Below the pieces are notes generated by a model, which saw only the letters and a list, made by a program, of their open reading frames with translations, was not told where the DNA came from and did not search any database. Shown here one piece after another: positions 14,957-62,670 of a DNA stretch of 64,000 bases; position 1 is the stretch's first letter, and each line of letters starts with the position of its first letter. A program made the translations under genes and the position numbers. Origin of the DNA: Acidobacteriota bacterium (GTDB lineage Bacteria > Acidobacteriota > UBA6911 > RPQK01 > JAJDTT01); contig OZ241897.1 in assembly GCA_965203535.1 (NCBI GenBank), positions 5,782,169 to 5,846,168 on the forward strand. Direction: 5' to 3'.

Positions 14957-15007
14957 GATACCCGGGAGCGTAGCCCTACACCCGCAACCGGTCAAGACGG
15001 CACGCCG

Positions 15008-15036
15008 ACGGAGTGGGGGTTTTCCTACCCCCACTC
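15008..15036. repeat. Solo inverted copy of the GAGTGGGGGTAGGAAAACCCCCACTC hairpin module
   Basis: gagtgggggttttcctacccccactc is the reverse complement of the hairpin at 366-394 and 4012-4040. It sits in the 100-bp gap between two minus-strand genes. Confidence 0.6.
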
Positions 15037-15056
15037 CTCAGGGGTGACACTATGCC

Positions 15057-16538
15057 CTACGTGTCCATCAACCGATCGATGTCCGGATCCAGAACAGGGG
15101 GCCGCGACGCCAGGGAGATCCCGACGAAGAGGGTCAGCGACACCAGCAGCGAAATCGCGCCCGGATCGATGCCCCAGGGAACTTCGGCATCGAGCAGACG
15201 AAACGCGAAATTGATGGACAGGCTGACCAGAATGGCGGTCTTGGCGGCCAGCGCCGTGGCCCGCTTCCAGTTCAGTCCCAGGGCCACGACCGGGACCAGC
15301 GCCGCCGCGAAGGTTCCCCAACCGAAGGCCCCCAGAATGGCCACCAGGTCGCCGCTGTAGAGGGCGAAGACCGAAGCCACGGCGGCGATGATCACGGTGG
15401 CCGTCCGGGCCCAGAAGAGCTCGTTTCCCAGCGACCGGCCCCGGAGCGCCCGGGGAATATCGTGGACGACGGCGGCCGCGCCGATGTTCAGAAAGCCGTC
15501 GGCCGTGGACATGATGGCCGCGAAGAGGGCCGCGAAGACCAGCCCGGCCAGGACCGGCGGAACGTAGTGTGCGAGGAATTGAGGAGCAGCCGAATCGGCA
15601 CCCTCGAGCTCCGGATGCAACCCCCGGATCACCAGGGCCCGCATGGCCAGGCCGATGCTGATCCAGAGCAGCGCCGACACGGCGTAACCGAGGGCGGCCA
15701 CCGGCAGGATGGACTTGGCGTCCCGGACCCGCCGGTTCATCATCATCTTGGTGACGACGTGGGGTTGACCGGCGACCCCCAGGATGAAGAGCAGGTACCA
15801 GGACAGCCCCTGGAATGCTCCCATGGTTCCCCACGGGCTCATGGAGCCGGCGTCGTCGGCCGAGATGGTCGAGACGATCCCGTTCCAACCCCCGGGCGCC
15901 ACGTTGGCCGTGGCCAGGAAGACCAGCACGGCGGCGGCCACCATCACCAGTCCTTGCACCAGGTCCGTATAGACCGAGGCGATGATGCCTCCCGTCACGC
16001 AATAGAAGACCAGCACCGCGCAGGAAAAGGCCACGCAGGCTTCCATGCTGAAGACGCCGAGACCGGCGCCTGCGACCAGGTCGCGGAGCACCGTGGCCAT
16101 GGCCAGGATCTGCGTCGCCAGGTACCCCATGACACCCAGGAGAATGGCGAGCGCGGCCAGGAACCGGCATCCCTCGCTGCCGTATCGCGCCGCCACCGCA
16201 TCGGGCAGCGAGACCGGTTCCCTGAGCTCGGCCAGAAGCCGGATCCGCTTGGCCAGCAGCGCGAAACAGAGGACGTAGCCCAGGGGGATGCACATCACCA
16301 TCCAGACGGAGGTCATTCCCATCCGGTAGACCAGTCCGGGGCCGCCCACGAATCCGAACCCGCTCATGGTGCTGGAGAAGACGGCCAAGCCGGTGACCCA
16401 GACGCCGAGGTCCCGTCCGGCCATGAAGAAATCCCGCGTGGAGCGGGTCCGGCTCAGGGCCCAGAGCCCGACGGCGACGCACATCACCATGTACAAGCCC
16501 ACGAAGAGCAGGATCACCGAGCTTCGGGACAGATCCAT
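15057..16538 (-). CDS. Sodium:solute symporter (SSS family) transporter
   Basis: Start MDLSRSSVILLFVGLYMV at the ATG overlapping (ATGA) the upstream gene's stop. Multiple TM helices. SSS-family segments GRDLGVWVTGLAVFSSTMSGFGFVGGPGLVY and TDLVQGLVMVAAAVLVF. Confidence 0.8.
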   Translation of the reverse strand: MDLSRSSVILLFVGLYMVMCVAVGLWALSRTRSTRDFFMAGRDLGVWVTGLAVFSSTMSGFGFVGGPGLVYRMGMTSVWMVMCIPLGYVLCFALLAKRIRLLAELREPVSLPDAVAARYGSEGCRFLAALAILLGVMGYLATQILAMATVLRDLVAGAGLGVFSMEACVAFSCAVLVFYCVTGGIIASVYTDLVQGLVMVAAAVLVFLATANVAPGGWNGIVSTISADDAGSMSPWGTMGAFQGLSWYLLFILGVAGQPHVVTKMMMNRRVRDAKSILPVAALGYAVSALLWISIGLAMRALVIRGLHPELEGADSAAPQFLAHYVPPVLAGLVFAALFAAIMSTADGFLNIGAAAVVHDIPRALRGRSLGNELFWARTATVIIAAVASVFALYSGDLVAILGAFGWGTFAAALVPVVALGLNWKRATALAAKTAILVSLSINFAFRLLDAEVPWGIDPGAISLLVSLTLFVGISLASRPPVLDPDIDRLMDT

Positions 16539-17077
16539 CACCCGCTTCCCTTCCCTTTTCGGGATCGGACGAACCGGCGAAAGTGGCGGTCGGTCTCCTC
16601 CGTCAAGATCCAACGGTCGAAGCTGACGACGTACAGGATCACGAAGTAGATGGGCGGCAGGATCCAGAGGAAGAAGACCATCACCACGGTGGGCGGCGGG
16701 AACGACCAGAGAGAAGGCGCGACGGGATAGACGTGCGCCAGAATCATCCACGTAAAGATTCCGGCGTGGAGAAGGCCACCCAGCAACAGGGGAACCCGCA
16801 CCGGGCCCGAACCCTTTCGTCCCGACAGACCCAGGCCCAGGAGGCAGAGAAACACGGCGATCTGCAGCGCTCCCACCAGCCAGACGCCTGCCAGGAGAGG
16901 ATCATTGATCTCCCAACTCCAACCGCTGCGCTGCATGGTGGGAAACTGCGGATGGTCGACGGGTCCCCAGTTGCTCCTGGCGCCGTGCAGGATGAGGGCT
17001 CCCAGGACCAGGCTCAGCGCGGCAAGCAGAGCCAGGAGCATCCATGTCAGCCGAGTTCGCGAATCTCTATCGGACAT
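16538..17077 (-). CDS. Small polytopic membrane protein translationally coupled to the SSS transporter
   Basis: 179 aa with four or five hydrophobic helices. Its stop overlaps the symporter start. Possibly related to DUF4212-type symporter accessory subunits, but it is longer than those. Confidence 0.5.
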   Translation of the reverse strand: MSDRDSRTRLTWMLLALLAALSLVLGALILHGARSNWGPVDHPQFPTMQRSGWSWEINDPLLAGVWLVGALQIAVFLCLLGLGLSGRKGSGPVRVPLLLGGLLHAGIFTWMILAHVYPVAPSLWSFPPPTVVMVFFLWILPPIYFVILYVVSFDRWILTEETDRHFRRFVRSRKGKGSG

Positions 17078-41116: not shown

Positions 41117-44100
41117 TCATGTCATGGTGTCAGCATCAACTGGCAATTCGGCTTCAAGATGGATTCGAAGGTCCGCAGCGATGGCTTTCGGTATCGGTGC
41201 CCACGCTGGCTCCTGCTCACTAACGGTGTCACTCTTGTTTACTTCACCCAACTCAGCGGTCCGGATTCTGCGGCCATCCACCTCGTATTTGCCGCCCATC
41301 ACAACATCAAAGAGGTGGGCACGACCATGTACGACGCGGAAACGATGCTCGTCGTAGGTGCCTGCGATGTAGGGGACAGCGACATCCAGGGGACAATTTT
41401 GCTTACCGTGGCTCCAGAGACGTTCGGTTTTGCTACCGATCCGATCGACACGACCCGTCCGCTGCTCAAGCGTCGCCGGGTTCCACGGGAGGTCGTGGTG
41501 GATGACATGGCGGCACTCCCGGTGAAGGTCAATGCCTTCTTGGCCGACCGTGGTGACGACTAGAACCTCTGGAAACAGCGGCGAGTTGAAGCCCATAAAT
41601 AGCCGGTCACGCTCCGAGTTGGCAACCGATCCCGTCACGCGGGCGACGACATCGCGGTTTCTACTCGCATCTTCGTAGACAGAGATTTGCTCCTCAAGGC
41701 CGACTGCCCTCCGGAGTGTCTCCAGGTAAGCGTCGAACCGCTCTTGGGCGGACTCCCCCGCCGCAGACGGTGTCTGGTAGCGCTTGTGGATCAGTGAGGT
41801 CCAGTCATCATCGGCGGTATCGTCGTCGATGCTGGGCCGTTCGTTCGGATCGTCCAAAATGAAGCGGGCGAGGAAGCCGGGTGAACGGACAATGCGACGA
41901 AACATGCGCGTGGCCAACGTGCGGAGTCGGCCGGGCAGTCGCGCCAGCGCAGCCGAGTGACAGCACGTGAGCAGACTCGGCACTTCGATGCCTGGCTCGG
42001 CCAAGTAGGGAGAAAGCGTCGCTTGACCAGCGCGACCTTCGAGCACGGCCTTCCACGCGTCGATGTCTTCGGGCCGAGCGTAATGGCCGGCGGTGTAGAT
42101 GTCCTGATGGTCGGAAAGTAACTTGGATTTTAATTTCGGAAGGATACCTTCGACAACCTCACGGCGGCGAATAGGCCAGTCGGGGGCCAACACAAGGTTG
42201 AGCGACGCCGAAACCGTTTCCGCAAGCCGGAGCGGTCCAACTACGTCATTGATTTGTTGTTGTCCCCGGGAAAACTCCTTCCATCGGTCCACCAGAACCT
42301 GCTCGGCCGCGGCGAGTACACGTCGGCGGCTAAACTGGCTACGGTTGCGCGGCGGACCGCTGAGTGCAAGGCGTACCGCGACATCTGCGATTCCTCGCCC
42401 ACGAAGAGCAAGTCCCTGTGGAACACGTAGTTTCGGTCCTGCGAGGGGGTGGTCCTGGAAAAGCAGAAAGACCGACTGACGGTAGTTGTAAAGCCTCTTC
42501 TGGAAGTTCTTTAGGCGCTGTTCCAGCTTGTCCTCGGTGCACTCAAACGCTGCAGTCAACACCTTCGTATTGTATGTGTCGACCCGTCTCTTTACGGCGT
42601 TTCGGACCGCCTTAACGGTCTCAATATTGAAACAGAAGACCAGGGTCTTGTCGCCCTTACGCCACGCGCGGAAGGCACGCTCTGCAGTAACCGCAACCTT
42701 TGGGTGTTCGTGACCGCCTCCCCTAATCGCCCGCTCGACTAGGCCGAGATAACGCCTCGCCTCCTCGTTGCTCCCAGGCAGCATCCGCCTCAACTCACCT
42801 TTTCGGAAGAACGCGTATGAACCCCCGAGATCAGCTCCGAGGCTCGTCGAGCCACGCCCTCCCTTTTCTTCCTGCACGGCTCTCATCATCAGATAGTGCA
42901 CCAGTTCGGCGTCGCCGCTCACGTCTAGACCGGGTCGCCAACGAAGAACGCTTTCGCGTGTGGGGCGTTCGCTCGATTCTGGATCGGCCTCGCGGCCCAC
43001 CCACCACGCGCGATGTGAGACGTCGCGTAGGTGCCGCAGCAGGAACGGATTGAGGCTCATACTGAGTTGTTTTTGGGTGTCGCGCACGCGCACCAACGCT
43101 TTTACCGCTCGCCGCAGTCGTGGCGGCAGGTGATCAGACCAACCACGCTCGCCATTCTCATCCCAAGCCTGTTCCAGCTCGTTCATGTCACGTTCTTCAA
43201 CCTCGGCCCAAACGCTTCGGAGCGATTCTCCCGCCGCTTTGGCCGCTTGAAGCTGTACATCGAGAGTGCGGATGCGTTCATTTAGGAAGACCATGCGTTC
43301 TTCCGACAAGCCGATGCAGCACCGGAGATCAAGCACCCGGACGAGCTCATGCGGCCTGAGCTGGAACGGGGTCGCAGACAGTCCGAGCAAGCGGTCTATC
43401 CGCAGTCCCAGCGTGTGAAGGAACCTCCACCAGCTCGTTGGGTGGTTCTTCCAGTTGTGAATTTCGTCCACGATAACGAGAGGTACACTGTGGGGCACAG
43501 TCTGACCGAGCGCAGTGCGACAGATTTCTCGCAGATCCACCCAGTAAGATGATCGTTTCGAATGGCCGCTTCGGACTCTGTTCCACGAGTCCTTCATACG
43601 ATCACAAAGTCTGCGGTCGGCAAACTCGAGTCGACTCCACGCGGAACGTATATGGTGGTTGTCGAAGCCCACCTCGTCGGCGCTCCGCGCTTCCTGCCAC
43701 GCTACGGAAGATCGTCGCAGGTCCAGTTTCTCTCGCGTCGGACAGAATGACTGTGATTGGCAGTCGGACAACATCTCAAGGCGCTTTTGCATCGAAAGAT
43801 CGAATCCGTCCATGCGTAGCAGCGAGTGGATGACCGCCATACGCGCAGTATCGAGTCGATGTAGACGCCCGGAGAACGCGGACATACGCGCGATCACCAG
43901 TGTAGGCTTTCGTTTCCTCAGCTTGCGAACCAGATCGTGTGGTGTCTCTGCGGTCTCGACCTCGAAGCCATTGTCCGGCGGTGCCACGTGGAGGAGGAAC
44001 TGTTCAGCCTCTCGCTTCCACTTTGCAAAAAGGGCGTGGGCGTGAGGAGTGACGACGAGCACCGGACCAGTAGAAAGGCCCGCCACCGAACGCTGGCGAA

Positions 44101-44332
44101 GCACCGACCAAGCTACGCCCAACGCCACGAAGGTCTTCCCGAGCCCGACCTCGTCGGCAAGAAGGACGATTTCCCGGCGGCCCTCATCATCATCGTTGTA
44201 CAGGCGCCGAAGGATGGCATCGATGGTGCGCTCCTGCCGCATCGCCGCCTTCTCCACTGCAACAGGATCGCCATCCCCGAGCGCATGGCGGAGTGAGCAC
44301 CGCAAATCGAGTCCGTCGGGCCGTACGATCAT
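41117..44332 (-). CDS. SF2 (SNF2/DEAD-like) helicase, 1071 aa
   Basis: Motif I LLADEVGLGKTFVALGV. Motif II VIVDEIHNWKN. Motif III LLGLSATPFQ. Motif V LVVTTVGQEGIDL. Motif VI LEQRTGRVDRIGS. The start overlaps the upstream PLD gene's stop by 4 bp. Confidence 0.8.
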   Translation of the reverse strand: MIVRPDGLDLRCSLRHALGDGDPVAVEKAAMRQERTIDAILRRLYNDDDEGRREIVLLADEVGLGKTFVALGVAWSVLRQRSVAGLSTGPVLVVTPHAHALFAKWKREAEQFLLHVAPPDNGFEVETAETPHDLVRKLRKRKPTLVIARMSAFSGRLHRLDTARMAVIHSLLRMDGFDLSMQKRLEMLSDCQSQSFCPTREKLDLRRSSVAWQEARSADEVGFDNHHIRSAWSRLEFADRRLCDRMKDSWNRVRSGHSKRSSYWVDLREICRTALGQTVPHSVPLVIVDEIHNWKNHPTSWWRFLHTLGLRIDRLLGLSATPFQLRPHELVRVLDLRCCIGLSEERMVFLNERIRTLDVQLQAAKAAGESLRSVWAEVEERDMNELEQAWDENGERGWSDHLPPRLRRAVKALVRVRDTQKQLSMSLNPFLLRHLRDVSHRAWWVGREADPESSERPTRESVLRWRPGLDVSGDAELVHYLMMRAVQEEKGGRGSTSLGADLGGSYAFFRKGELRRMLPGSNEEARRYLGLVERAIRGGGHEHPKVAVTAERAFRAWRKGDKTLVFCFNIETVKAVRNAVKRRVDTYNTKVLTAAFECTEDKLEQRLKNFQKRLYNYRQSVFLLFQDHPLAGPKLRVPQGLALRGRGIADVAVRLALSGPPRNRSQFSRRRVLAAAEQVLVDRWKEFSRGQQQINDVVGPLRLAETVSASLNLVLAPDWPIRRREVVEGILPKLKSKLLSDHQDIYTAGHYARPEDIDAWKAVLEGRAGQATLSPYLAEPGIEVPSLLTCCHSAALARLPGRLRTLATRMFRRIVRSPGFLARFILDDPNERPSIDDDTADDDWTSLIHKRYQTPSAAGESAQERFDAYLETLRRAVGLEEQISVYEDASRNRDVVARVTGSVANSERDRLFMGFNSPLFPEVLVVTTVGQEGIDLHRECRHVIHHDLPWNPATLEQRTGRVDRIGSKTERLWSHGKQNCPLDVAVPYIAGTYDEHRFRVVHGRAHLFDVVMGGKYEVDGRRIRTAELGEVNKSDTVSEQEPAWAPIPKAIAADLRIHLEAELPVDADTMT

Positions 44333-46467
44333 ATTCGCCCCCGCTGCAGACAGAGATAGATTCGGACAACTTCGGCGTTGGTCTCCGTTGGAAGCTCAGC
44401 AACCACCTTATCGAGCAACGAGGTAACCTCGGCTAACGCTTCGGCCCGAAGTATGTCGGCGACGCCGTCAGCCAGCACCGGAAGCGGTGCGGTCTTGAGC
44501 AGGTACCGCAGTTCCGCGAGTTGAAACGCGGTGGCCACGGCGGTCTTGCGGGGCCGGTCGGGTTGGGGATTACGATAGGAGGCCAACGACTGGCGAGCCA
44601 GCTCGACGGGGGACCGATGTCCCAGCAACGCGGCGCGAAGTCCCGTCTCGTTCATGCCGGCTTCCGACAGGCGGTTACGAACGCCCGGGAGTGCGTGCAC
44701 GAAATCACGCACGAAATAGCTCAAGATGTCCTGCGTAGCCGACGGCAGATCATCGTTCCCCGGAAGAGGATCGATGCTATGGCCGAAGCCCCCGTCCTCC
44801 ATCTCACCGGCGGGCCGTAGCCCGAGAAACCAGGCGACGAGCGATTGCTCGTCCTCTCGGTACCGGGACTCGACGACCGGAAACAAGTGTTTGTCTTCAA
44901 ACACCACGGGTAAAACGGCAACGTTGCCGTTCCACGAGACCTCGGCTTCCAGATCCGGTAGCGCTGGCCACGTCTGACCGTCACCCGACGAACCCTGGTC
45001 CAACCACGACGCACTCAGCGAAGTGGACTCCGAAAATACACCCTCCGAGCTGGCGGGAGAGGACACGGTCCACGCGTCGAACCACTGTTTCTGATTGTAC
45101 AGCCGCGACCGAATGTCCCTCATACGAATGACGACTTTCTCCGGCCAAGTTGTGGCATCGCCCTTGATGAACAGCTCCTCCCTCTTCGCACGCAATGATA
45201 GGATGAAGGTGGGCCAGCCATCCTCGTCGTCGCCAATGTACTCCCGGGGCTCGACGACGAAGTCCTCGGGTCGCCGCGTCACCTTGCGCCACGCAGTTGC
45301 GAAGGACACGATGTCGGAAAGGCCCGAAGACTGGTCGTTCGGGAGTTCCCATAACAGACCCGCCTCCGCGTTCGAGTTGTTGACGAGGCCGAGGCCCTTC
45401 CGTGTGAAGTTAAACGACCCGATCGCGAGCCGCGTCGTCTTGTCGCCTACCGCGAGTAAGACCTTAGCGTGCAACGAGCGATTCCCGGTCGGGCTCGCTC
45501 CCCGGCCATCGGCGACCTTGTCGAACTCGCCCTTATCGTCTTCGTCTTCCGTCGCGCAACCGAAACCCGGGTCCGCAGCAGCCACCTCCACCTTCAACCC
45601 TGCGGCAAGCAGATCCCGCACGAGGCTCGCGGGGATGACTGGCCGAGCTTTCCCCTGCTCGTCCAAGTCCGCGCTCCCGATGAGCTGCACCGTCCCCAAG
45701 CGTCCGCCGCAGAACCGCCCAAGCGCGGTGACGACGTCGGAGAGATCGTTTCCCGATGGCCAGAACGGACTCGCGATGGTTAGCCGACCCACTCGCTCCC
45801 GAGATCCTGCGAGTCGCGGAAAGCCGGTCGCGGAGGGAAGACCCACAAATCGGAGCCGTTTGTCCCGACGCGATGCTGAGCGACTCATGAACACCGCCTT
45901 CATGTCTCGGAGCTGCCGGGTCACTTGGTTTGTCGATGAACCGATCAACCGTTCGAGCCAGTCCACCGCCTCCCGAACAGCCGTGGCTGCCTCCGACAAA
46001 CTACCGCGTGCGTCGTCGAGGGCCGCCGCTACCTCGATATTGCTCCGGTAGCCCGAGTTCGTGAGGTTCGCAGAACCGACAACTAGGCGGACAACCTGGT
46101 TTGCGGCCTCCGGTGAGTCTGGCGCAACGAAACGAAGGAGCGCCACCTTCGCGTGCAGTTTGGGGTAACGCCCTTCGGGCAGTGGAATGAGGTCGATGCG
46201 AGGAGACTTGCGCCGCCCGGGCTGGTAGCGGCCTGGATGGAAAAACACCGACACCTCTGTGTCCGCGAGCGCGTTTTCCAATTCCACGCGAAAGTCCCTC
46301 CCGCGGGCTGGCGGCAATCGCAGGCCAAGCGCGACCGGTAGGATGTCCTCCTCAAGGAAGTCCGCCTGCAGATCGTAGGTCGTAGCGATCACGCTAGCGA
46401 GCCGGTGACCCCGGGGCGCCTCCCAGAGTTCGATGAGTCGACGTGCCATCAAGAAACGGACTTCCAT
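44329..46467 (-). CDS. Phospholipase-D-family protein with two HKD motifs plus ~350-aa C-terminal region of unknown function
   Basis: HKD motif 1 is LHAKVALLRF...GSANLTNSGY. HKD motif 2 is LHAKVLLAVGDKTTRLAIGSFNFTRKGLG. The true start is possibly the internal MARRLIELW at 46449, which would give a 1-nt overlap with the upstream stop. Confidence 0.75.
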   Translation of the reverse strand: MEVRFLMARRLIELWEAPRGHRLASVIATTYDLQADFLEEDILPVALGLRLPPARGRDFRVELENALADTEVSVFFHPGRYQPGRRKSPRIDLIPLPEGRYPKLHAKVALLRFVAPDSPEAANQVVRLVVGSANLTNSGYRSNIEVAAALDDARGSLSEAATAVREAVDWLERLIGSSTNQVTRQLRDMKAVFMSRSASRRDKRLRFVGLPSATGFPRLAGSRERVGRLTIASPFWPSGNDLSDVVTALGRFCGGRLGTVQLIGSADLDEQGKARPVIPASLVRDLLAAGLKVEVAAADPGFGCATEDEDDKGEFDKVADGRGASPTGNRSLHAKVLLAVGDKTTRLAIGSFNFTRKGLGLVNNSNAEAGLLWELPNDQSSGLSDIVSFATAWRKVTRRPEDFVVEPREYIGDDEDGWPTFILSLRAKREELFIKGDATTWPEKVVIRMRDIRSRLYNQKQWFDAWTVSSPASSEGVFSESTSLSASWLDQGSSGDGQTWPALPDLEAEVSWNGNVAVLPVVFEDKHLFPVVESRYREDEQSLVAWFLGLRPAGEMEDGGFGHSIDPLPGNDDLPSATQDILSYFVRDFVHALPGVRNRLSEAGMNETGLRAALLGHRSPVELARQSLASYRNPQPDRPRKTAVATAFQLAELRYLLKTAPLPVLADGVADILRAEALAEVTSLLDKVVAELPTETNAEVVRIYLCLQRGRI

Positions 46468-47786
46468 GCGCCGGCCTCGCGCAACATGGCCGTGAACTGC
46501 TCGAGGCGATATGGGTGTGTGAACTCAGTGCGACCAGGGTTCTCGGGCCTCTCGTCGAGCGCGTACCGGGGAGCGACCACGATATCGACATCGTTATCGC
46601 ACAACTTAACCCAGGGGAGCTTGGGCTGCCGAGAGGCATCGAGCTTGCCGTCCTGCACCCGTTCGTGGTGGCGAATCAGATCGTGAATGACCTCCGCCTC
46701 GTTCTCCGCACGGACAGCTGGTTCGACGGCGCGGTAGAAACTATGCACGGCCGCGTGCACCGAAGGAGGCAGCCGGGCCTTGTGCTGTTCCAGAGCTCCC
46801 GAGAGCGAGTCGCCCAAGCGAGAGAGTGGCACGTCTCCTCCGCTGAGTTGGATGCTCATCAAGGGTGCGGGGCGATGCCGGTCCAACGACGCGCGCACTT
46901 GATTAAAGCGATGGAGCAACTCACGGTGGAGATCCTCGAAGGACGACGCGACAGCGAGGACTGCCGCTAGCTGGTCTGTTCGCGGTTCCCCCTGCTGGCT
47001 GAAGTGCTTGCTAAGCAACCGAAACGAGTTACCATTGGACGTGCTGGCACCCGTCGCCCGCATCGCGGACGCCATCCGCCTGTGAGCGAGCGGCTCTAGG
47101 AGAGCATCGGCGAGCAGCCGACGCTCGTGCATCGAAGCCGCTCCGAGATGCGCCACGTTGCCCCAGTCGGCCAGCGTGGTTTCTGTGAACACGACGTCCT
47201 CTCCACTGATGACCCTACGCAATCGGGCATGGTCAGGCGTCCCCCGGCGTCGAAGAAAGGCATCGGCCAGTTTCTTGCCCCGAGCGGTGAGTGCGCCGGC
47301 GCTGTCCTCGACCAACCGTGCCGCGACCAGACTAACCCAGTAGGTCCCTACGCCGCCCACGCCGGCTTGGTTTCGCAACATTGGGAACGCCGGTGAACGA
47401 ACCCCCTCGGTAACCGCGCGGCGTACATAGGACACACCTCGAAGCTGGTGCCATGAGCGGTCGTCCGCAGCGGCGCCTTGGGCAGTTGCGTGGATACCAG
47501 TGGCCAATGCCACGAGACGCTCCCACGCCAGGATTTTCTGTCGTCGCGCCCGACCGGCTCTACCGCCGGAAGGTGCGTCGGGAAGTTTGTCCAGCAACCG
47601 AAGTCCGGCACAGACCCAGGAGAGATAGCGGACGCGGGACGTGATCGTGGTAACTCCGGGGAGGAGCGTGGTCGCGATTGAAATAAAGGACCGTAGCGCT
47701 CCCAAAGGATCGATGCTACCCGAAACGGCAGCGCGGGGATCCCAGACGGACACGAAGGGTAAGGGCAGAAAGTCAGAACGCTTCAC
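46449..47786 (-). CDS. Hypothetical protein (445 aa) of unrecognised fold, embedded in the nuclease/helicase operon
   Basis: Continuous ORF with GC3 similar to the neighbouring genes. Tightly coupled at both ends, overlapping the Mrr-cat stop and the PLD start. No motif recognised. Confidence 0.5.
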   Translation of the reverse strand: MKRSDFLPLPFVSVWDPRAAVSGSIDPLGALRSFISIATTLLPGVTTITSRVRYLSWVCAGLRLLDKLPDAPSGGRAGRARRQKILAWERLVALATGIHATAQGAAADDRSWHQLRGVSYVRRAVTEGVRSPAFPMLRNQAGVGGVGTYWVSLVAARLVEDSAGALTARGKKLADAFLRRRGTPDHARLRRVISGEDVVFTETTLADWGNVAHLGAASMHERRLLADALLEPLAHRRMASAMRATGASTSNGNSFRLLSKHFSQQGEPRTDQLAAVLAVASSFEDLHRELLHRFNQVRASLDRHRPAPLMSIQLSGGDVPLSRLGDSLSGALEQHKARLPPSVHAAVHSFYRAVEPAVRAENEAEVIHDLIRHHERVQDGKLDASRQPKLPWVKLCDNDVDIVVAPRYALDERPENPGRTEFTHPYRLEQFTAMLREAGAWKSVS

Positions 47787-48415
47787 TAGGTTCCTTGATT
47801 CTCAGTTGCTCTTTTCTTCGGGTGCGAATGCATCTGCTTTCGTCTCCAAAAATCGCGATCGGACACTTTTGGACGCTGATGCGGGGCTGGATGAGGAAAA
47901 CGAACAGCCTTTTGCCATCGGTGAAGGTAATAGGGGGACGACCTCAGCGAACGCAGCTTCCTGAGTCGTTTTGCAGACTGGGAGGCTGTAACGAAAATTT
48001 TGCGGACGGCGTAGAATCGGTAGAGCGTGCCGTGGAGCACGTCGCAGATTTTACGTTGGATCGTAGTGGGATAGCGTTTCACCTGCGAGATATCACGGAC
48101 CGACGTGATGCCGAGATCGTTGTCGCCGGCCACATCAACGCCGTCGTCGTGCGACTGCGCAGTGACCACCACGTTCTGGCAACCCATCTTTTCCAACTGA
48201 CGTCCGATTACGTGCTCAAAGGCGAAGGGGTCCATGTCATCGGGGAGTCCGCGCATGCCATTACGAACCGTGTTCTCCTTATGGCCAATGAGGGCCCGGG
48301 TTTTGCAGTGGTCGTTTCCGCTGACGGAGTCTTCCTCGCTAGCCCAAGAGGCAGACCAGCCCATCCAGCGTCGCGGACAATTCCCTTCCTTTCCGCTTGA
48401 CCAAGCCCAACTCAA
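47786..48415 (-). CDS. Mrr-cat (restriction endonuclease) domain protein, C-terminal part of an apparently frameshifted Mrr-like gene
   Basis: FEHVIGRQLEKMGCQNVVVTAQSHDDGVDVAGDNDLGITSVRDISQVKRYPTTIQRKICDVLHGTLYRFYAVRKIFVTASQSAK matches the PD-(D/E)xK Mrr_cat architecture: D...D...QVKRY...T-T-S. The N-terminal 25 aa of the ORF call are low-complexity and probably out of frame. Confidence 0.6.
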   Translation of the reverse strand: MSWAWSSGKEGNCPRRWMGWSASWASEEDSVSGNDHCKTRALIGHKENTVRNGMRGLPDDMDPFAFEHVIGRQLEKMGCQNVVVTAQSHDDGVDVAGDNDLGITSVRDISQVKRYPTTIQRKICDVLHGTLYRFYAVRKIFVTASQSAKRLRKLRSLRSSPYYLHRWQKAVRFPHPAPHQRPKVSDRDFWRRKQMHSHPKKRATENQGT

Positions 48416-56818: not shown

Positions 56819-56998
56819 CTATGAAGCACTGCCGCTAACGGTGATCATTTTCAGGAAGCCGTAAAGGGCGTAAGGGAGGCAGGTCTTGCCAGTGTTGTTT
56901 CGTCCGGCGATGATCGTGAGGTCGCCCAATTCCAGTGCGGCGTCCTTCACCGGTCCGATCTTCCTGAAGCGGAACGTCACCGGATCACCCGAGAGCAC
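56819..56998 (-). pseudogene. Remnant: N-terminal 59 codons of an AAA-type ATPase (OLD/RecF-like) gene, truncated
   Basis: GTG start. MLSGDPVTFRFRKIGPVKDAALELGDLTIIAGRNNTGKTCLPYALYGFLKM then a stop. The DLTIIAGRNNTGKT P-loop context is typical of AAA_15/AAA_21 abortive-infection or OLD ATPases. Not in the ORF track because it is under 60 aa. Confidence 0.3.
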
Positions 56999-56999
56999 C

Positions 57000-57383
57000 T
57001 TATCCCGCTGATCCGACTACGGAAGCCAAATGTTTGAAATCTGAATCGGCAGTTTCGAGATCAACACGGTAACGGCGGACACAGGCAGCCACGATCACAT
57101 CCGTAGCAGGCACCGTAATGCCTTGAGCTCTGGCTCGACGCGCCAAATCATGTGCAATCCGCCAGACCTCGTCGTCAATGCGCAGTTCTGGTAGCACGCG
57201 GGCGAATACCCGCAGAGCCTTCTGTTCCTGCTGGCCCCTCGCGCCGTTCCAGAGTTCCAACTGGACCAAGGGACACCAGCAGGCCTGACCCGTCCTCAAA
57301 GCCTTTTCGACACGGACGCGAACTGCCGGATCGCCGTTCCGGCGCAGCATGTGAATCCAAGACGACGTATCGACAAGGATCAA
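57000..57383 (-). CDS. vapC: VapC-type PIN-domain ribonuclease toxin
   Basis: MILVDTSSWIHML is the PIN N-terminus (first acidic residue D5). Later acidic residues ...EL...D...D fit the PIN fold. 127 aa. Confidence 0.8.
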   Translation of the reverse strand: MILVDTSSWIHMLRRNGDPAVRVRVEKALRTGQACWCPLVQLELWNGARGQQEQKALRVFARVLPELRIDDEVWRIAHDLARRARAQGITVPATDVIVAACVRRYRVDLETADSDFKHLASVVGSAG

Positions 57384-57387
57384 CGGG

Positions 57388-57591
57388 TTACCCCTTGCGG
57401 CGATTGGCCTGAAGTTCTTCCGGCGTGATCAGTTCAGTGCAGGTTCCCGAAAACCGAGTGAGTTCTGCCATGCGCATGCGGCGATTGAAATCTGCGACGG
57501 CGCCGACGATGGCTTCCCGCTTGGTCTTCGCGTTGGTGAACTTGATAGCATCCTCGAGTTCGTGTTCAGGAATATCAATTGTGGTCTTCAT
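57388..57591 (-). CDS. vapB: VapB-type antitoxin (small DNA-binding protein)
   Basis: 67 aa, 4 bp upstream of vapC. MKTTIDIPEHELEDAIKFT...REAIVGAVADF is typical of type II antitoxins. Confidence 0.7.
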   Translation of the reverse strand: MKTTIDIPEHELEDAIKFTNAKTKREAIVGAVADFNRRMRMAELTRFSGTCTELITPEELQANRRKG

Positions 57592-57818
57592 GCTTCCAAG
57601 ATAGCACTGAGGAGAATCTCATCCCACCCAAAATATTCTCACGGTTTTCGATTGGCGTTCGGTCGACGCGATTGTTCCACCGAAGCTCACGTCGCCCCAA
57701 ATCGCAGACTCTGTCCAAATCAAGCATCTCGTGGTGGAGAATCACGACCAACTTTTCGACATGCTGCAGTCAGTTTTCATTGGGACGATCACGGGAGATC
57801 CGTGCGCGGACAACCCTC

Positions 57819-59048
57819 TCAAAACAGGTCGCTCAAATTGACCCTGTCTATTTTCGGTCGCGGCTTGGGAAGCGCGCCCGCGAACCTCTCGATGGTGAGC
57901 TGCCTTCGTCGCTCCAACCCCCGAAAACGATCGAGAAACAGGGTGCTATCGCCATCGGTCGTGCTGAAATAGATCCATTTGGTCGCGCGGGTAATCCCAA
58001 CGAACAACCATCTTTCCAGTCGTTCATCCATTATCCGAAAGAGACGCCGATTCAGACACGGCATCAAAACAGTGTCGAAGGTCAAGCCCTTGGCGCTCGG
58101 ATACGCCATGAGCTTGGGCCGCGAGGTGCCGAAATCAATGGTTGGCCTCGTGTTTTTCCTTTTTCTCCCAGGTTGTCGAGGAACCTCAACTTCCAGGCCA
58201 GCCTCTCCCAAACCCTTGGCATAGCCGAAGACATGTCTTCGAGTCGGGAACAGGATCGCTATGCGGTCGTTTCTGTCGACGCGGGTGCGGACCACTTCGA
58301 TCAGACGTTCCCGCTCGTCTTTGAATGCCCGGGCGAGGTAGAGAAGCGGGGTTTGGCGTTCGCCTTTGTCGACGGGCGGATTCTGTTCAATGAACGCTTC
58401 GCGTTCCGACGGGTCACGGATAAACGCCGCGGCGACCCGTACGATGTAGGGCGAACAACGATAGGCATCGAGAAGCGTGAGGTTACGCTTGCGCAATCCC
58501 AACGCCGTAAGAACGCCCTTCTCATCGGCGCCTTCATAGAGTTGCTGCTTGTGGTCCATGTAGACCGTGACATGCCCGGCTATACCCTTGAGGGTTTCGT
58601 ACGCGCGAGCGTCCAGATCCTGTCCTTCATCGACCAGCACAAAGTCGTAGAGAGGTATGAGTCTCTTCTGCGAGCGAACTCTTTTCCACACTGCACGGCG
58701 AATCGCCTTGAAGTCCGGACTCTTCCCGTCCCATGGCACGCGTCCACCGATGTGCGTCCTATAGAACCTCCGACACCAATCATCGAAGGTCGTCACGCAC
58801 TCCTCGGGAAGACGGAGATCTTGAAGCGCCGTGCGGATGTAGGCCTTCAGCACGTTGGTGAACACAAGGATCCGGTATCTGCTATCCGGAATTCTGTGCT
58901 CATCCACAAGGTGCCGCGCGCGGTGCAACAAAACGAGCGTCTTTCCGGATCCTGGAGAACCGATAACCAGGCGATGTCGCCTGGAACTCAACTGGACCGC
59001 GCGACTTTGCGCGACAGTCAGCTCATTTCGAGGAACGAGCCAACTCAT
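57819..59048 (-). CDS. UvrD/PcrA-like superfamily-1 helicase, short form (409 aa)
   Basis: Walker A LVIGSPGSGKTLVLLHRA. Walker B FVLVDEGQDL. C-terminal UvrD_C-like ...GLTFDTVLMP...FVGITRATKWIYF. The start overlaps the stop of the Hsp70-like gene by 4 bp. Confidence 0.7.
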   Translation of the reverse strand: MSWLVPRNELTVAQSRAVQLSSRRHRLVIGSPGSGKTLVLLHRARHLVDEHRIPDSRYRILVFTNVLKAYIRTALQDLRLPEECVTTFDDWCRRFYRTHIGGRVPWDGKSPDFKAIRRAVWKRVRSQKRLIPLYDFVLVDEGQDLDARAYETLKGIAGHVTVYMDHKQQLYEGADEKGVLTALGLRKRNLTLLDAYRCSPYIVRVAAAFIRDPSEREAFIEQNPPVDKGERQTPLLYLARAFKDERERLIEVVRTRVDRNDRIAILFPTRRHVFGYAKGLGEAGLEVEVPRQPGRKRKNTRPTIDFGTSRPKLMAYPSAKGLTFDTVLMPCLNRRLFRIMDERLERWLFVGITRATKWIYFSTTDGDSTLFLDRFRGLERRRQLTIERFAGALPKPRPKIDRVNLSDLF

Positions 59049-61480
59049 TGCCCCCGCCTTTCGATCTCATTTCGACGTTCGGGCAGAACTCCAGTCGTCC
59101 CCTCCCGTGATTTTTCCCGGCGCTGCCGTTCGTCCTCGACCTTGCGCGACAGCTTGCTGTTGCCGGCAAGATTCGCGCCTTTCAGATACCATACAAGTTC
59201 CCAATCGCTTAGATTCTTCAGTGGACGGAACTCGGCAAAGGCTTGGTCCAAGAGGGCGTTTCTCTGCTTCTCGTGTCGTTCAAGTTTTTCGGCCAGCGTC
59301 GCCTTGAGCACAAGAGTGGGAGGATCAGACTCCACTGCGAGTGCCTCGTCAATGGTTAGAATCGCCTCCTCAAGTTTGCCCTGACGCATCTGTGAAAGCG
59401 CCAAGTTAAACAGGGGACCTTTCCAATGCGGGGAGACTCGGGCGGCCTCGCGATAGAGCTTCTCTTGACGTGCGAAATCCGCCATCTCGCCGCAGATGAT
59501 GCCCATCCGATTCAGTATCTCGGCATTCGGATGCGGGCGATTCAAGGCGCTCAAGAGATGCAGAGCCTTCTCACGCCTGCCCAAATCCGCTTCAAGTTCG
59601 GCAATCTTTTTCACCGTCGCGCGTTGGTCCGTCGTCGACATGTGCTCCGTGCGCATCCGTTCTTCCAGTTCCAGAATCTCATTCCGCTTTGCGTTCGGAT
59701 TCACCACGTTGGTCAACGGGTTTTCGACCTCTGCCTGAAATTCCTCTCGATCTGGTTGGTGTGCCAAGCCGAGGCGAAGATGCAGCACTTGGTTGCTGTC
59801 CATCCGGCAAAGCAACCGTAGCGGATCCCCCCGGCTGACAATCGGTTGAATCGTCCAGAGTGTGCGCATGACATCGTTGCCCCGCGAGTCTCGGAGTTCG
59901 ACGCGGAGTTCAACGTCGTCGGTCAGGCCGGATCTGGGAACCTTCAAGCTATTGTTCTCCACCCAACCTTCGTCGGTCGGATAGGGCAATTTTGCGCCGC
60001 TTTCAACCAACCGCACCGGCCCATCCGAAGTCTGGATGCTGATGCCATCGCTCGTGACGGGTTGCACGATGCCTCGCCCGTACACAGCCAGAGACAACGC
60101 CTGCCAAGCTGCGCCTTGAGCGATAGCAGTCTGCGTGCGCTCCGGATCGTCGAAGCGCAAGAACCGCGCCTCACTAAAGAAGCCGGCGACGGCATCCGCG
60201 ATCTGCGGAACCAGACTGCTTCCACCGACCGCCAGGCAAAGATCGACGTCCTTGCGGTCCAGTCCGGCCCGGTCCAAAGCGTCTTGTAGCGGCGCAAAAA
60301 CAGAGCAGGTTTCGTGGTAATCCGCCTCCCGGGCGTAGAGCAGGTCTCGATCCAGAAAGGGTTTCAACACCGCGTCGAACTGGCAGGCGCTCAGCGTGGG
60401 GGATTGCAGCCGAAACTCCGTTCCATCTGACAAGAGGCAGGGATAGACTCCAGGATTCCTCTTGACCAGGGCGGCGCGTTCTTCGTCACCGTAGCGATCG
60501 AACTTCTTCAGCCGAGCGATCTCTTGGCATAGTCCGATCTTCAAAGATTCGGCCACGCCAAGGAGCGCTGGAATCACAAACTGGGACTTCTCGCCGTAGT
60601 CCAAATCGCGGAAGTTCGGCCTGTTCTGTTCCATCAATTGCGGGAGCAAGACCTCGACAACGATGGCTCGGTCGATGTCGCTGCCGCCAAGGCGATGATA
60701 GCGAGACACCGTGAGCGGTGCGATTTTGACCGGTTGCCCTGCTTTAGGCGGCAGAAGCTGGAACAGGGCAACGTCGCAGGTGCCGCCGCCAAAGTCGAAC
60801 ACCACGAGCCGCTGCGGTGCCGAAACCTCCGCAAATACTTGTTTGCCTTGAGCGATCTGAAAATCGAGAAACGCCGCGATCGGTTCGTCCAGCAGACCTC
60901 CCTCTACCAAATCGATGCCGCCGAGCGCCGCGGCCTCGACCGTATCCTGCCTCTGCGCGGCTTGGAAGGAGGCCGGCGTTGTGACCACGGTGTTCGTTAC
61001 CGGCGTCGGGTCGTCGGTTAGTGCCGCATCCATGAGAAATCGGAGTACGTGTCCTCCAATGGCCTTGGCAGATTGAAAACCGTCCTTGGCCTTGTGGTAA
61101 GTTCGGCGGACACCGATGTCATTCTTGCAGTCCCAGAAGATGTTTCTGTTCTGTTCCAGACCGTATTCGCTCAGTCGGGCGCGCAGCATCTTCGCTCCCT
61201 CACCCACAAGCAGTTGTCCATACGGACCATCGGCGAACGCAACCACTGACGGTACCAGGGTGTGAATATATTCACCTTGCCGAGTGTGTTGCTCGACTTC
61301 GAGGCAACGAACTTCAGGCAGGTTCGTGTCTCCGGGATGGATAACGATCTCGGCAATAGCAGAATTCGTAGTGCCCAAATCTATGCCGACGACGCGCAAT
61401 GGCTCGTTCGGCGTGCGGACCTGGACATTCTGCGGCGTGATCAGTGCGAGTGATGGCATATCACTTGTCCTGTCATTCAT
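59045..61480 (-). CDS. Hsp70-family (DnaK-like) ATPase with C-terminal TPR-like helical domain
   Basis: Start MNDRTSDMPSLALITPQ. The ORF-track N-terminal extension to 62257 overlaps the dehydratase gene and is spurious. VVGIDLGTTNSAIA (phosphate-1), VVFDFGGGTCDVAL (connect-1) and Hsp70 NBD/SBD-like regions. The C-terminal ~250 aa are helical repeats (TPR-like). Confidence 0.75.
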   Translation of the reverse strand: MNDRTSDMPSLALITPQNVQVRTPNEPLRVVGIDLGTTNSAIAEIVIHPGDTNLPEVRCLEVEQHTRQGEYIHTLVPSVVAFADGPYGQLLVGEGAKMLRARLSEYGLEQNRNIFWDCKNDIGVRRTYHKAKDGFQSAKAIGGHVLRFLMDAALTDDPTPVTNTVVTTPASFQAAQRQDTVEAAALGGIDLVEGGLLDEPIAAFLDFQIAQGKQVFAEVSAPQRLVVFDFGGGTCDVALFQLLPPKAGQPVKIAPLTVSRYHRLGGSDIDRAIVVEVLLPQLMEQNRPNFRDLDYGEKSQFVIPALLGVAESLKIGLCQEIARLKKFDRYGDEERAALVKRNPGVYPCLLSDGTEFRLQSPTLSACQFDAVLKPFLDRDLLYAREADYHETCSVFAPLQDALDRAGLDRKDVDLCLAVGGSSLVPQIADAVAGFFSEARFLRFDDPERTQTAIAQGAAWQALSLAVYGRGIVQPVTSDGISIQTSDGPVRLVESGAKLPYPTDEGWVENNSLKVPRSGLTDDVELRVELRDSRGNDVMRTLWTIQPIVSRGDPLRLLCRMDSNQVLHLRLGLAHQPDREEFQAEVENPLTNVVNPNAKRNEILELEERMRTEHMSTTDQRATVKKIAELEADLGRREKALHLLSALNRPHPNAEILNRMGIICGEMADFARQEKLYREAARVSPHWKGPLFNLALSQMRQGKLEEAILTIDEALAVESDPPTLVLKATLAEKLERHEKQRNALLDQAFAEFRPLKNLSDWELVWYLKGANLAGNSKLSRKVEDERQRREKSREGTTGVLPERRNEIERRGQ

Positions 61481-61488
61481 CCCGCAGA

Positions 61489-62670
61489 TTATTCCCTCAA
61501 CACATCGGACCGCCCCTCCCAGCCTTCGGCCAGGAGATCGATCACGCGGTCTCCCTTGAGGGGATGTTCGCGGGCTACCGAGACGTCGAGTTCCACCCCG
61601 AGGCCCGGTTTCTCCGGCAATTCGATGTAGCCGTTCCGGATGGGGGCCGAGCCGGTGACCAGATCCCGGGTCCAGGAGGGATAGGCGAACTCGGCGAACG
61701 CCTCCTGGATCAGGAACGCCGGCGCCGTGAAGCTGACCTGGATCGAGGCCGCCATGCAGATGGGGCCCAGGGACATGTGGGGAGCGAAGAAGACGCCCAG
61801 GGCGTCGGCCAGGGACGCCATCTTCTTTACCTCCAGCATCCCGGAGGAATAGCCCACGTCCGGCTGGAAGACGCCCGCCGCCCGGTCGGGCAGGTACTGG
61901 CTGGCCTGCACCAGGTCGCTGATGCCGGCCACGTCGGTCCCGATGGGAATATTGACCCGGGACGCCACTTCCTTGAGGGGGGCGGGACCCAGGTAGCCGA
62001 GAGTCGGCGCCTCGTACCAGAGCAGGTCGTACGGTTCCATGGCCTTGCCGAACTGAATCGCGGCTTCGGGATGAAACCGGGCGTGCGCCTCCACGATCAG
62101 GCCTGTGTCGGGTCCGGTGGCGTCGCGCACGGCGGCGACGATGTCCACGGCCAGGCGGAACTCCGACGGTTCGAGGCGGCGGTAGGCGGCCCCGAAGGGG
62201 TCGAACTTGAGAGCCGTGTAACCCTGGTCCACCAGCTTTCCGGCCTTCGCCGCCCATTGGCTGGGTTCACGGGCGTCGAAGTCGTTGTACCAACCGTTGG
62301 CGTAGACGCGGATCCGGTCGCGGACCTTGCCGCCCAGCAACTTGTAGACCGGGACTCCGTAGTGCTTCCCCAGAATGTCCCAGCAGGCCTGCTCCACGGC
62401 GGAGAGAACACTCCTCTCCACCATGCCCAGACCTCGATCGATCCCCAGCATCTGGCGGGTGTCCAGGACCATCTGTTCGATGTCGTGGGGGTCCCGCCCC
62501 AGGAAGAGATGCTCGCCGTTCTGGCGCAGATAGGCTTGGGCCGCCAGGGACCAGTGGTACCCGATCCCTTCGCCGACGCCGACAACACCGGTGTCCGTCT
62601 CCACCTGCACGAAGAACCAGGGGTTCCAAGGATTCTCCACGATGTAGGAATCGACTTTGATGATCTGCAT
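61489..62670 (-). CDS. Enolase-superfamily (mandelate racemase/muconate-lactonizing enzyme family) sugar-acid dehydratase
   Basis: 393 aa. N-terminal capping domain (MQIIKVDSYIVENPW..WFFVQVETDTGVVGVGE). Barrel metal ligands (…DPFG…, …EAP…, …DVAGISD…). Confidence 0.75.
   Translation of the reverse strand: MQIIKVDSYIVENPWNPWFFVQVETDTGVVGVGEGIGYHWSLAAQAYLRQNGEHLFLGRDPHDIEQMVLDTRQMLGIDRGLGMVERSVLSAVEQACWDILGKHYGVPVYKLLGGKVRDRIRVYANGWYNDFDAREPSQWAAKAGKLVDQGYTALKFDPFGAAYRRLEPSEFRLAVDIVAAVRDATGPDTGLIVEAHARFHPEAAIQFGKAMEPYDLLWYEAPTLGYLGPAPLKEVASRVNIPIGTDVAGISDLVQASQYLPDRAAGVFQPDVGYSSGMLEVKKMASLADALGVFFAPHMSLGPICMAASIQVSFTAPAFLIQEAFAEFAYPSWTRDLVTGSAPIRNGYIELPEKPGLGVELDVSVAREHPLKGDRVIDLLAEGWEGRSDVLRE

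Follow-up and report, generated by a model that had tools for sequence, protein, structure and literature searches.

A conserved gene pair encoding an Hsp70-like ATPase with a TPR-like C-terminus and a minimal UvrD-type helicase, a candidate bacterial immune module

Background

Proteins of the Hsp70 family have been predicted or shown to be parts of prokaryotic conflict systems, in which they are proposed to act as sensors or assembly factors (PMC7159879, PMC12642450). Examples include the Hsp70 components of GTPase-centric conflict systems (Kaur et al., eLife 2020, PMC7159879) and lidless DnaK-like domains, approximately 50% identical to DnaK, that are fused to EACC1-protease modules (PMC12642450). 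The partners in these systems are GTPases, tubulin, GrpE, or protease-effector modules. Here we describe two adjacent genes of an Acidobacteriota bacterium (assembly GCA_965203535.1, contig OZ241897.1) in which the partner of an Hsp70-like protein is instead a superfamily 1 (SF1) helicase. The genes lie in a stretch of 64,000 nucleotides (forward-strand positions 5,782,169 to 5,846,168 of the contig), which we refer to as the window. In contrast to the EACC1-linked domain, the window Hsp70-like protein is only about 20% identical to DnaK and carries an array of TPR-like (tetratricopeptide repeat-like) helices.

The closest described arrangement is found in the CoCoNuT systems. In Type III-B and in Type III-C, the protein CnuD consists of Hsp70-like nucleotide-binding and substrate-binding domains (NBD and SBD) followed by HEAT-like repeats and has degenerate Walker-A-like motifs (PMC11090510), while CnuH is a large UPF1-like SF1 helicase that contains OB, SmpB-like and RNase-like domains (Bell et al., eLife 2024, PMC11090510). 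CoCoNuTs are defined by an McrB-like GTPase and an McrC-like protein (DUF2357), along with coiled coils and HEPN or other nucleases, and are often located in superoperons with restriction-type systems (PMC11090510). The pair in the window resembles Type III CoCoNuTs in having a separate gene for an Hsp70-like protein with an NBD, an SBD and C-terminal helical repeats (a likeness to CnuD that is one of architecture only), in having an SF1 helicase, and in often being located with restriction-type systems. However, no McrB-like, McrC-like, coiled-coil or HEPN neighbors, and thus no counterparts of CnuB or CnuC, accompany the pair in the window, and no McrB or McrC family is among the top neighbor families of its relatives (250 neighbor ORFs). 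Moreover, the helicase is a UvrD-type core of 409 amino acids rather than a large UPF1-like protein, and the ATPase residues are invariant in the window family, whereas the Walker-A-like motifs of CnuD are degenerate.

Gabija is likewise a two-gene defense system with a UvrD-type SF1A helicase (GajB), and nucleotide hydrolysis is a possible shared logic. However, GajB is approximately 500 to 650 amino acids long and its matches to the window helicase span only the motif blocks. We rejected membership in Gabija because no GajA ATPase-TOPRIM (OLD-family) nuclease is adjacent and the upstream partner is the Hsp70-like protein. Full-text literature searches, whose coverage leaves out most subscription journals, returned no description of a pair of Hsp70 and UvrD-like proteins; a mention of Hsp70 in a paper on HEPN proteins was set aside as irrelevant to the pair.

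Results and Discussion

Conservation of the gene pair

The Hsp70-like gene occupies positions 59045..61480 on the minus strand of the window, and the helicase gene follows directly at 57819..59048 on the same strand. An initial annotation, made from the window sequence alone, had placed both open reading frames (ORFs) here, had recognized the motifs IDLGTTNS and DFGGGTCD in the Hsp70-like protein, and had reported that the stop of the first gene overlaps the start of the second by 4 bp. Reading of the sequence bears this out, the overlap being the ATGA at 59045..59048 (minus strand), a stop/start arrangement suited to translational coupling. The Hsp70-like ORF itself stands, but its annotated length of 811 amino acids probably does not: the start is more likely Met8 at 61459, giving 804 amino acids, than the ATG at 61480, because Met8 is where the family consensus opens and a sibling contig (L084) likewise has an 804-amino-acid gene call. 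The mechanically called ORF extends upstream of the ATG at 61480 into the neighboring MR_MLE gene.

We scanned one genome for each of 185,579 species and found the family to be rare, with at most 319 loci (at most 0.17% of species genomes) in approximately 17 or more phyla. The 80 best of these loci, which we analyzed in detail, encode proteins 41–68% identical to the window Hsp70-like protein, and all are from metagenome-assembled genomes of uncultured bacteria. By record title they belong to Acidobacteriota, Gamma-, Beta- and Alphaproteobacteria, Binatia, Poribacteria, Nitrospirota, Desulfobacterota, Bacillota, and Verrucomicrobiota, as well as Lentisphaerota, Planctomycetota, Chloroflexota, Armatimonadota, Ignavibacteriota, Bdellovibrionota, Hydrogenedentota, Marinimicrobia, and Dependentiae. 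Enough downstream sequence to judge the pairing is available for 76 loci, and in 72 of them the helicase gene is the next one downstream on the same strand. The distance from stop to start in these 72 pairs is -4 nucleotides in 42, an overlap of any length in 48, and no more than 20 nucleotides in 68. In addition, the identities of the two proteins to their window counterparts co-vary across loci (Pearson 0.72, n=63). Judged by this recurrence, the pairing is far beyond chance, and the gene layout shows that the two genes form one unit, which is conserved, translationally coupled and spread horizontally. A separate search with the SBD and TPR segment found 132 cluster representatives at E<=1e-30 among 1.84 billion, and the full-length matches are nearly all approximately 780–810 amino acids long with an identical layout.

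More distant versions are found on two plasmids, pSMS3-3 of Antarctobacter heliothermus and pPP6 of Persicobacter psychrovividus. Both encode proteins 28% identical to the window Hsp70-like protein, followed by an 'AAA family ATPase' of 387 or 388 amino acids that is 24% identical end-to-end to the window helicase (E-values of 1e-19 and 6e-27). Two IMG/VR contigs (L100 and L101) encode an 802-amino-acid Hsp70-like protein and, after a gap of 13–15 nucleotides, a 389-amino-acid helicase. The gene order is kept in all three of these very distant branches (two plasmids, two IMG/VR contigs; 24–28% identity), and the pairing is older than the core family. The initial annotation had proposed that conservation of the Hsp70-like gene independently of the helicase would argue against a functional pair. 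We see no such independence, either among the 76 informative loci or in these distant branches.

The distant versions on the plasmids are flanked by insertion sequence (IS) elements and toxin-antitoxin genes, and one of their Hsp70-like proteins (L082) has a weak match to the PADLOC family PDC-M61B (2.4e-06 over about 60 residues). A third downstream gene is present in the distant versions and encodes 456, 596 and 455 amino acids, respectively (L082, 5449-10880; L083, 5989-11389; L100, 7929-12901). We considered this gene as a shared effector and rejected it as such because the three proteins are unrelated to each other and to anything in the 80 loci; the two plasmid proteins matched no Pfam or PADLOC family. 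The variable third genes of the distant versions may be effectors.

Exceptions to the common arrangement are few. Four Hsp70-TPR genes (L066, L078, L079 and L080) are unpaired, and their identities to the window protein, 41–46%, are among the lower values of the set. Three of them still adjoin defense-type genes, namely PDC-S02 (L066), DrmD and WYL (L079), and a type IV restriction enzyme (L080). Degraded copies also occur: L004, L008, L015 and L028 have partial or truncated helicase matches, and in L014 and L071 the Hsp70 match region is approximately 0.8–1.1 kb longer than normal, suggesting an insertion. Such decayed copies fit a dispensable accessory module. No fusion of the Hsp70-like protein with the helicase is present in the match lists, and the sole fusion seen is to an N-terminal protein kinase. 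This metagenomic Hsp70-TPR protein of 1103 amino acids carries a Ser/Thr protein-kinase domain and is followed by the helicase gene with a 4-nucleotide overlap (L097, 659-5223).

The Hsp70-like protein

Pfam HSP70 matches residues 30–285 (E = 2.6e-25, 89 bits against a cut-off of 20.6). Residue conservation and an AlphaFold2 (AF2) model, both derived from 97 homologues, define the remainder of the architecture; the model has a pLDDT of 91.5 and a pTM of 0.90. The nucleotide-binding domain, an actin-like ATPase, spans residues 28–467 (60080..61399, minus strand), as indicated by the model, by matches to DnaK and by invariant residues. It is followed by a beta-sandwich domain of eight or more predicted strands that resembles the beta part of the Hsp70 substrate-binding domain in the model and in Foldseek alignments (residues 473–586; 59723..60064, minus strand). 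Eleven predicted helices then form a TPR-like repeat array in the position of the lid (residues 597–790; 59111..59692, minus strand), and the protein ends in a G-x-L-P motif, in which L799 and P800 are invariant or near-invariant (residues 797–800; 59081..59092, minus strand).

Residues D34/G36/T37, K119, D198-E199-P200, D229-FGGGT-x-D236 and G419-G420 are invariant in the 97 homologues. By our own mapping, we take these to be candidate catalytic residues corresponding to the ATPase set of Hsp70/DnaK. Because this set is invariant, the Hsp70-like protein is expected to be an active ATPase. In the beta-sandwich domain an LPYP motif is conserved and both P499 and P501 are invariant.

Foldseek aligns 650–760 columns of the model to full-length DnaK and BiP with E-values of about 1e-28 and 19–20% identity. 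Because these alignments span the full-length chaperones, the beta-sandwich substrate-binding domain is, in the model, retained, and only the alpha-helical lid and the EEVD end are exchanged for TPR helices. The hallmarks of the Hsp70 superfamily (PF00012) are accordingly divided, with the ATPase domain and beta-sandwich present and the lid and EEVD absent; the C-terminal tail carries G-x-L-P in place of EEVD. The substitution of TPR helices for the lid and EEVD had been proposed previously from the sequence, and it holds for these two elements only; the substrate-binding beta-sandwich is kept in both the AF2 model and the Foldseek alignments. Pfam TPR matches at residues 674–723 are all below threshold. 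The family profile matches an engineered TPR protein with an E-value of 1.8e-60, and for this reason we regard the C-terminal array as genuine TPR.

The protein shares with canonical Hsp70s (DnaK, HscA and the YegD-type PRK11678) the fold, the catalytic residues of the ATPase, a segment resembling the interdomain linker, and the beta-sandwich. However, at 19–20% identity to DnaK, lacking both lid and EEVD, it falls well short of the NCBIfam cut-offs for DnaK (95.5 bits against 648), HscA (92.2 against 620) and the PRK11678 'molecular chaperone' (28.1 against 331). A grouping with housekeeping Hsp70s of the HscC/YegD type had been named in advance as evidence against a distinct function. The protein does not group with DnaK, HscA or PRK11678 by these scores, and the output contained no model specific for HscC. 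None of the families in PADLOC-DB v2.0.0 matches the Hsp70-like protein at E<=0.01.

The helicase

The initial annotation of the 409-amino-acid protein as an SF1 helicase with Walker A and B motifs and a UvrD_C tail agrees with its Pfam matches (UvrD-helicase, AAA_19 and UvrD_C). We measured residue conservation over 81 homologues. The Walker A sequence GSPGSGKT (residues 30–37; 58938..58961, minus strand) has invariant G30, P32, G33, G35, K36 and T37, and the Walker B or motif II sequence DEGQD (residues 140–144; 58617..58631, minus strand) has invariant D140, E141, Q143 and D144. Further invariant residues are Q14, R197, Q222, K320/G321/T323 and R354. If these residues are assigned to motifs as we presume, the core motifs of SF1A helicases (Q, I, II and III–VI) are all present in two RecA-like domains. 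The N-terminus, MSWL(V/I)PR, is also conserved.

The AF2 model of the helicase has a pLDDT of 91.4, falling to 57–63 only across the last 20 or so residues. Its top Foldseek matches are UvrD, PcrA and Rep (E-values of about 1e-14), with TM-scores of 0.6–0.69 when normalized to the query and approximately 0.45 when normalized to the target, and a profile search of the PDB finds PcrA at 1e-21. The 1B region of the model consists of two short helices at residues 88–126, and the 2B region is a segment of about 28 residues (approximately 283–311) without regular secondary structure. From the TM-scores read together with this secondary-structure map, the predicted helicase has both RecA-like domains but almost no 1B and 2B accessory domains. 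In contrast, UvrD, Rep and PcrA are 620–720 amino acids long, and in UvrD the 1B and 2B domains comprise about 125 and 170 amino acids. The large 1B and 2B domains typical of SF1A are therefore absent, and the protein scores far below the UvrD, PcrA and Rep cut-offs. We classify it as a minimal SF1A (UvrD/PcrA/Rep-type) helicase-like ATPase.

In PADLOC the helicase matches only generic helicase models, namely C3a187 NERD+UvrD and, partially, GajB (best 1.5e-15). It resembles the helicase half of the NERD+UvrD (C3a187) family, and at one locus (L032, 8873-10714) a 613-amino-acid NERD+UvrD helicase (C3a187, 1e-74) directly follows the mini-helicase. Another locus (L074, 11701-13539) has a second, larger helicase in the same place, identified only through the helicase HMM (hidden Markov model).

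A weak similarity of the helicase to HelD and HelR, which are RNA-polymerase recycling motors, raises the question of whether the pair is a specialized housekeeping or stress machine that remodels stalled protein-DNA or RNA-polymerase complexes in the manner of HelD, or that repairs protein-DNA adducts. Hsp70 chaperones classically take apart nucleoprotein complexes, as in the release of DnaB from lambda P by DnaK and DnaJ, and many genes near the pair are metabolic, both of which fit such a machine. We nonetheless judge it improbable. The family is rare and patchy across its phyla, the copy in the window has a foreign composition (see below), several genomes carry decayed copies, and versions occur on plasmids and in IMG/VR. 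Neither DnaJ nor GrpE is among the top neighbor families (250 neighbor ORFs), another difference from canonical Hsp70s, and the scores come nowhere near any housekeeping Hsp70 cut-off. The low scores and the pairing with a helicase in 72 of 76 loci both support the earlier statement that this is not a housekeeping chaperone arrangement; from there to a function in defense is a step that we infer.

The C-terminal tail of the helicase

The helicase ends in NLSDLF-COOH (57822..57839, minus strand), which follows the low-confidence linker of the model. In the 81-sequence set this tail is conserved: 71 of the sequences have D at position -3, and 78 end in F or L. The tail, D-L-x-D-L-F or L-D-F-L, is preceded by a variable and mostly acidic linker. 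Endings in the genome loci are DLF, DFL, DLL or DIL, and those of the plasmid variants are DDELFF and SIDDLF.

In eukaryotes, the contact between Hsp70 or Hsp90 and Hop or CHIP joins a TPR domain to a conserved acidic C-terminal peptide (EEVD). The same two halves, a TPR array and a conserved acidic C-terminal peptide, are present here. However, their roles are swapped, with the TPR array on the Hsp70-like protein itself and the peptide on the helicase. The helicase tail may thus dock in the TPR array of its partner or in the beta-sandwich domain. In a crude co-variation test, the Hsp70 columns that best track the type of tail (642, 647, 658 and 682) are all in TPR helices, which we regard as weak evidence for a tether.

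The genomic island in the window

The pair is part of an island (56819-61480) with a GC content of 0.571, compared to 0.65–0.66 in the flanking genes, and a GC content at third codon positions (GC3) of 0.65–0.66, compared to 0.84–0.86. One boundary is formed by an MR_MLE enolase-superfamily gene (61489-62670) and the other by a MetE-like gene (Pfam Meth_synt_2), both identified with Pfam. Between the pair and the latter gene are a VapB antitoxin (57388..57591, minus strand; Pfam VapB_antitoxin, E = 2.1e-07) and a VapC PIN-domain toxin (57000..57383, minus strand; Pfam PIN, E = 2.9e-12). With the antitoxin gene upstream and a spacing of 4 nucleotides, these have the type II VapBC arrangement, and the VapBC module previously noted beside the pair is therefore genuine. 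The last gene of the island is a 59-amino-acid N-terminal stub of an AAA_15 ATPase (56819..56998, minus strand) with PADLOC matches to PD-T4-4_A (6.8e-15) and PDC-M47A (3e-15).

The history of the stub is revealed by the sibling contig L084, which is collinear with the window and 98.7% identical in nucleotide sequence over a 7.2-kb block that includes the pair. In L084, the region between VapC and the MetE-like gene holds an intact AAA_15 ATPase and a PDDEXK_4 protein (14611-16925). The ATPase has 472 amino acids and matches PD-T4-4_A (8.1e-86 over residues 6–462) and also PDC-M47A, while the PDDEXK_4 protein matches PDC-S26 (5.1e-90). Comparison by blastn shows that a deletion of approximately 2.3 kb in the window removed the PD-T4-4-like ATPase and the PDDEXK_4 nuclease and left only the stub, so that no full-length PD-T4-4 A subunit is present there. 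The description of the stub as a decayed AAA-ATPase gene is correct as to its presence, but what it represents is the remnant of a deletion from a gene pair that is intact in L084. The deletion shows turnover of defense genes inside one small island.

Synonymous divergence (dS) between the window and L084 is 0.015 for the Hsp70-like gene and 0.007 for the helicase gene, compared to 0.076 for the flanking MR_MLE gene, all from small counts. The dS of the pair is 5–10 times below that of MR_MLE, a hint of recent transfer or recombination of the island, and the comparison suggests that its sharing or acquisition postdates the divergence of the backbone. A scan of metagenome contigs with the flanking MR_MLE gene, seeking relatives without the island, gave only homologues with 33–36% identity. 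Promoter and terminator matches around the island are at chance level.

These data bear on two further explanations. The copy in the window could be a decaying, non-functional remnant, given that the neighboring system has been deleted, that decayed copies exist elsewhere, and that the ratio of nonsynonymous to synonymous divergence (dN/dS) relative to L084 is 0.96 for the helicase. However, neither ORF is truncated and all invariant residues of the family are preserved, the helicase value derives from only 8 substitutions, and dN/dS for the Hsp70-like gene is 0.32. We therefore hold decay to be extremely improbable. It could also be argued that the pair serves a selfish mobile element, in replication, partition or anti-defense of a plasmid or prophage, since the island is compositionally foreign with a dS much below that of its housekeeping neighbor, and distant variants are found on two plasmids, flanked by IS and toxin-antitoxin genes, and on IMG/VR viral contigs. 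However, the window island contains no integrase, replication initiator or transposase, no tRNA, and no meaningful flanking direct or inverted repeats. The core family is absent from 50,697 phage and 72,556 plasmid records and has one match in IMG/VR, and the genes near the pair are host defense genes rather than element backbones. A selfish function thus appears very improbable. A match in Mycoplasma phage MAV1 was dismissed because it covers only the NBD (30% coverage).

A second low-GC stretch (0.586–0.591) is located approximately 9.4 kb from the pair at 41117-48415 (minus strand). It comprises four tightly packed or overlapping ORFs for an Mrr_cat endonuclease (209 amino acids), a protein of 445 amino acids with no family assigned, a PLD-like protein (712 amino acids) and an SNF2-family helicase (1071 amino acids), and looks like another restriction-like defense operon. 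The PLD-SNF2 genes found next to the pair elsewhere are only distant relatives of this operon.

Neighboring genes in other genomes

We surveyed genes within 8 kb of the pair at the 80 loci, using tblastn to find SNF2 and methyltransferase genes and 250 neighbor ORFs to rank families. In the three closest genome relatives (L001, L071 and L081; 68–71% identity) the genes are arranged on one strand with short gaps in the order PLD-SNF2, Hsp70, helicase, and Type-ISP-like N6-methyltransferase. Across the 80 loci, SNF2 is found in 16 and a large N6-methyltransferase in 15, with one or the other in 21 and both in 10. DrmD-like neighbors match their model at 2.3e-204 and 1.5e-143, and a type IV restriction enzyme matches at 3.1e-273. 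Other neighbors include PDC-S02, NERD+UvrD, DrmMI-like or type IIG, MkoA-like and LmuB-like proteins, WYL regulators, DUF3800, and DndD/PbeC. Together with the foreign composition of the island and the PD-T4-4-like system in the sibling contig, the recurrence of DrmD-like, PLD-SNF2, methyltransferase, type IV, WYL and PDC neighbors agrees with the suggestion, first made from the window alone, that the context is one of defense or mobile-element cargo.

The DrmD-like SNF2 protein and the DrmMI or type IIG-like methyltransferase, found at about a quarter of the loci, recall class 1 DISARM, in which the Hsp70-like protein and helicase would take the place of DrmA and DrmB. However, the pair has no homology to either DrmA, a superfamily 2 helicase, or DrmB, a DUF1998 protein, and most loci lack DrmD and DrmMI. 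Matches to DrmA at other loci are only secondary matches of SNF2 proteins. We did not assign the window island to class 1 DISARM, as it contains no DrmD, DrmMI, or DrmA/DrmB.

A looser relationship would be that the pair provides accessory sensor and motor subunits of a split, DISARM-class-1-like restriction system made up of SNF2-PLD and a Type-ISP/IIG-like methyltransferase, and that the copy in the window has been orphaned. The shared gene order of the three closest relatives, the 21 loci with one or both partner genes, the strong matches of neighbors to the DrmD and DrmMI models, and the lack of an effector domain in the pair all agree with this. However, both partner genes are missing within 8 kb at 59 of the 80 loci, including fully flanked megabase contigs, and there the pair is both intact and conserved. 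Its position also varies, lying between the SNF2 and methyltransferase genes, downstream of both, or in convergent orientation, and the SNF2/PLD operon at 41117-48415 of the window, 9.4 kb away, is only a distant relative. We consider it unlikely that the pair is confined to such a role.

Possible function of the pair

We favor, with moderate confidence, the interpretation that the pair is one horizontally mobile unit and most likely an anti-phage or anti-mobile-element module that works either alone or together with SNF2/PLD and methyltransferase systems. The pair belongs among the NTPase modules of defense islands, where its chaperone core is unusual, and it is probably an immune module not yet described. 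From their sequences, both proteins look competent for catalysis, and a role in nucleic-acid surveillance may be envisaged.

Several observations weigh against this interpretation. The main gap in the account is that neither protein contains a recognizable nuclease, toxin or membrane effector. The defense-gene association is frequent and diverse in raw counts, uncorrected for background, but most of the immediate neighbors across the 80 loci are ordinary metabolic genes. The pair in the window has no SNF2 or methyltransferase partners of the kind seen in its closest relatives. The dN/dS of the helicase relative to the sibling copy is near 1, though from the few substitutions mentioned above. 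Finally, docking of the helicase tail is proposed from its conservation, and the co-variation signal is confounded by phylogeny, with 22 TPR columns in the top 60 where 16 are expected.

A possible mode of action for such an immune module is as follows. The two genes are co-transcribed and translationally coupled, as their layout shows, which is compatible with a stoichiometric complex. The helicase would be tethered to the Hsp70-like protein through its acidic linker and D-hydrophobic-hydrophobic-COOH tail, which might dock in the TPR array, in a reversal of the EEVD-TPR contact, or in the peptide cleft of the beta-sandwich. Because complete ATPase motifs are kept in both proteins, both should hydrolyze ATP. 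With so little of 1B and 2B, the helicase is probably a weak single-strand translocase, or an ATPase alone, that its partner would regulate or target. The last step is the least certain. The ATP-driven clamp cycle of the Hsp70-like protein might sense a foreign protein or nucleoprotein complex and gate the helicase, which might strip or unwind replication intermediates of the invader or burn nucleotides, while the flanking SNF2-PLD nuclease and methyltransferase, where present, might supply cleavage and self/non-self marking. The overall effect would be to interfere with the DNA of an invader or with its replication proteins.

A bolder version of this scheme, which we offer tentatively as a possibility, is that a dedicated Hsp70 paralogue forms the sensing and regulating core of an antiviral system that stands alone and has no nuclease. 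It would hold a minimal UvrD-type motor by the reversed EEVD-TPR contact, and engagement of its substrate-binding domain by a phage protein or nucleoprotein complex would lead the chaperone ATPase cycle to release or aim this motor. Such a system, present mostly in uncultured lineages, would for that reason have been missed by screens centered on E. coli.

Conclusions

The uncultured origin of all 80 close loci helps explain why the pair is absent from function-based screens, and the plasmid versions in Antarctobacter heliothermus and Persicobacter psychrovividus provide cultured starting points. The conserved helicase tail and the built-in TPR array form a concrete and easily testable interface. 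In addition, the repeated insertion of the pair between SNF2-PLD and methyltransferase genes bears on how restriction-like systems gain modules. Should the pair prove to be an immune module, it would offer a tractable system of two proteins in which a chaperone ATPase controls a nucleic-acid motor, and the Hsp70 chaperone family, whose members in CoCoNuT and GTPase-centric systems have so far been predicted only as accessories, would join the standalone core parts of bacterial immunity.

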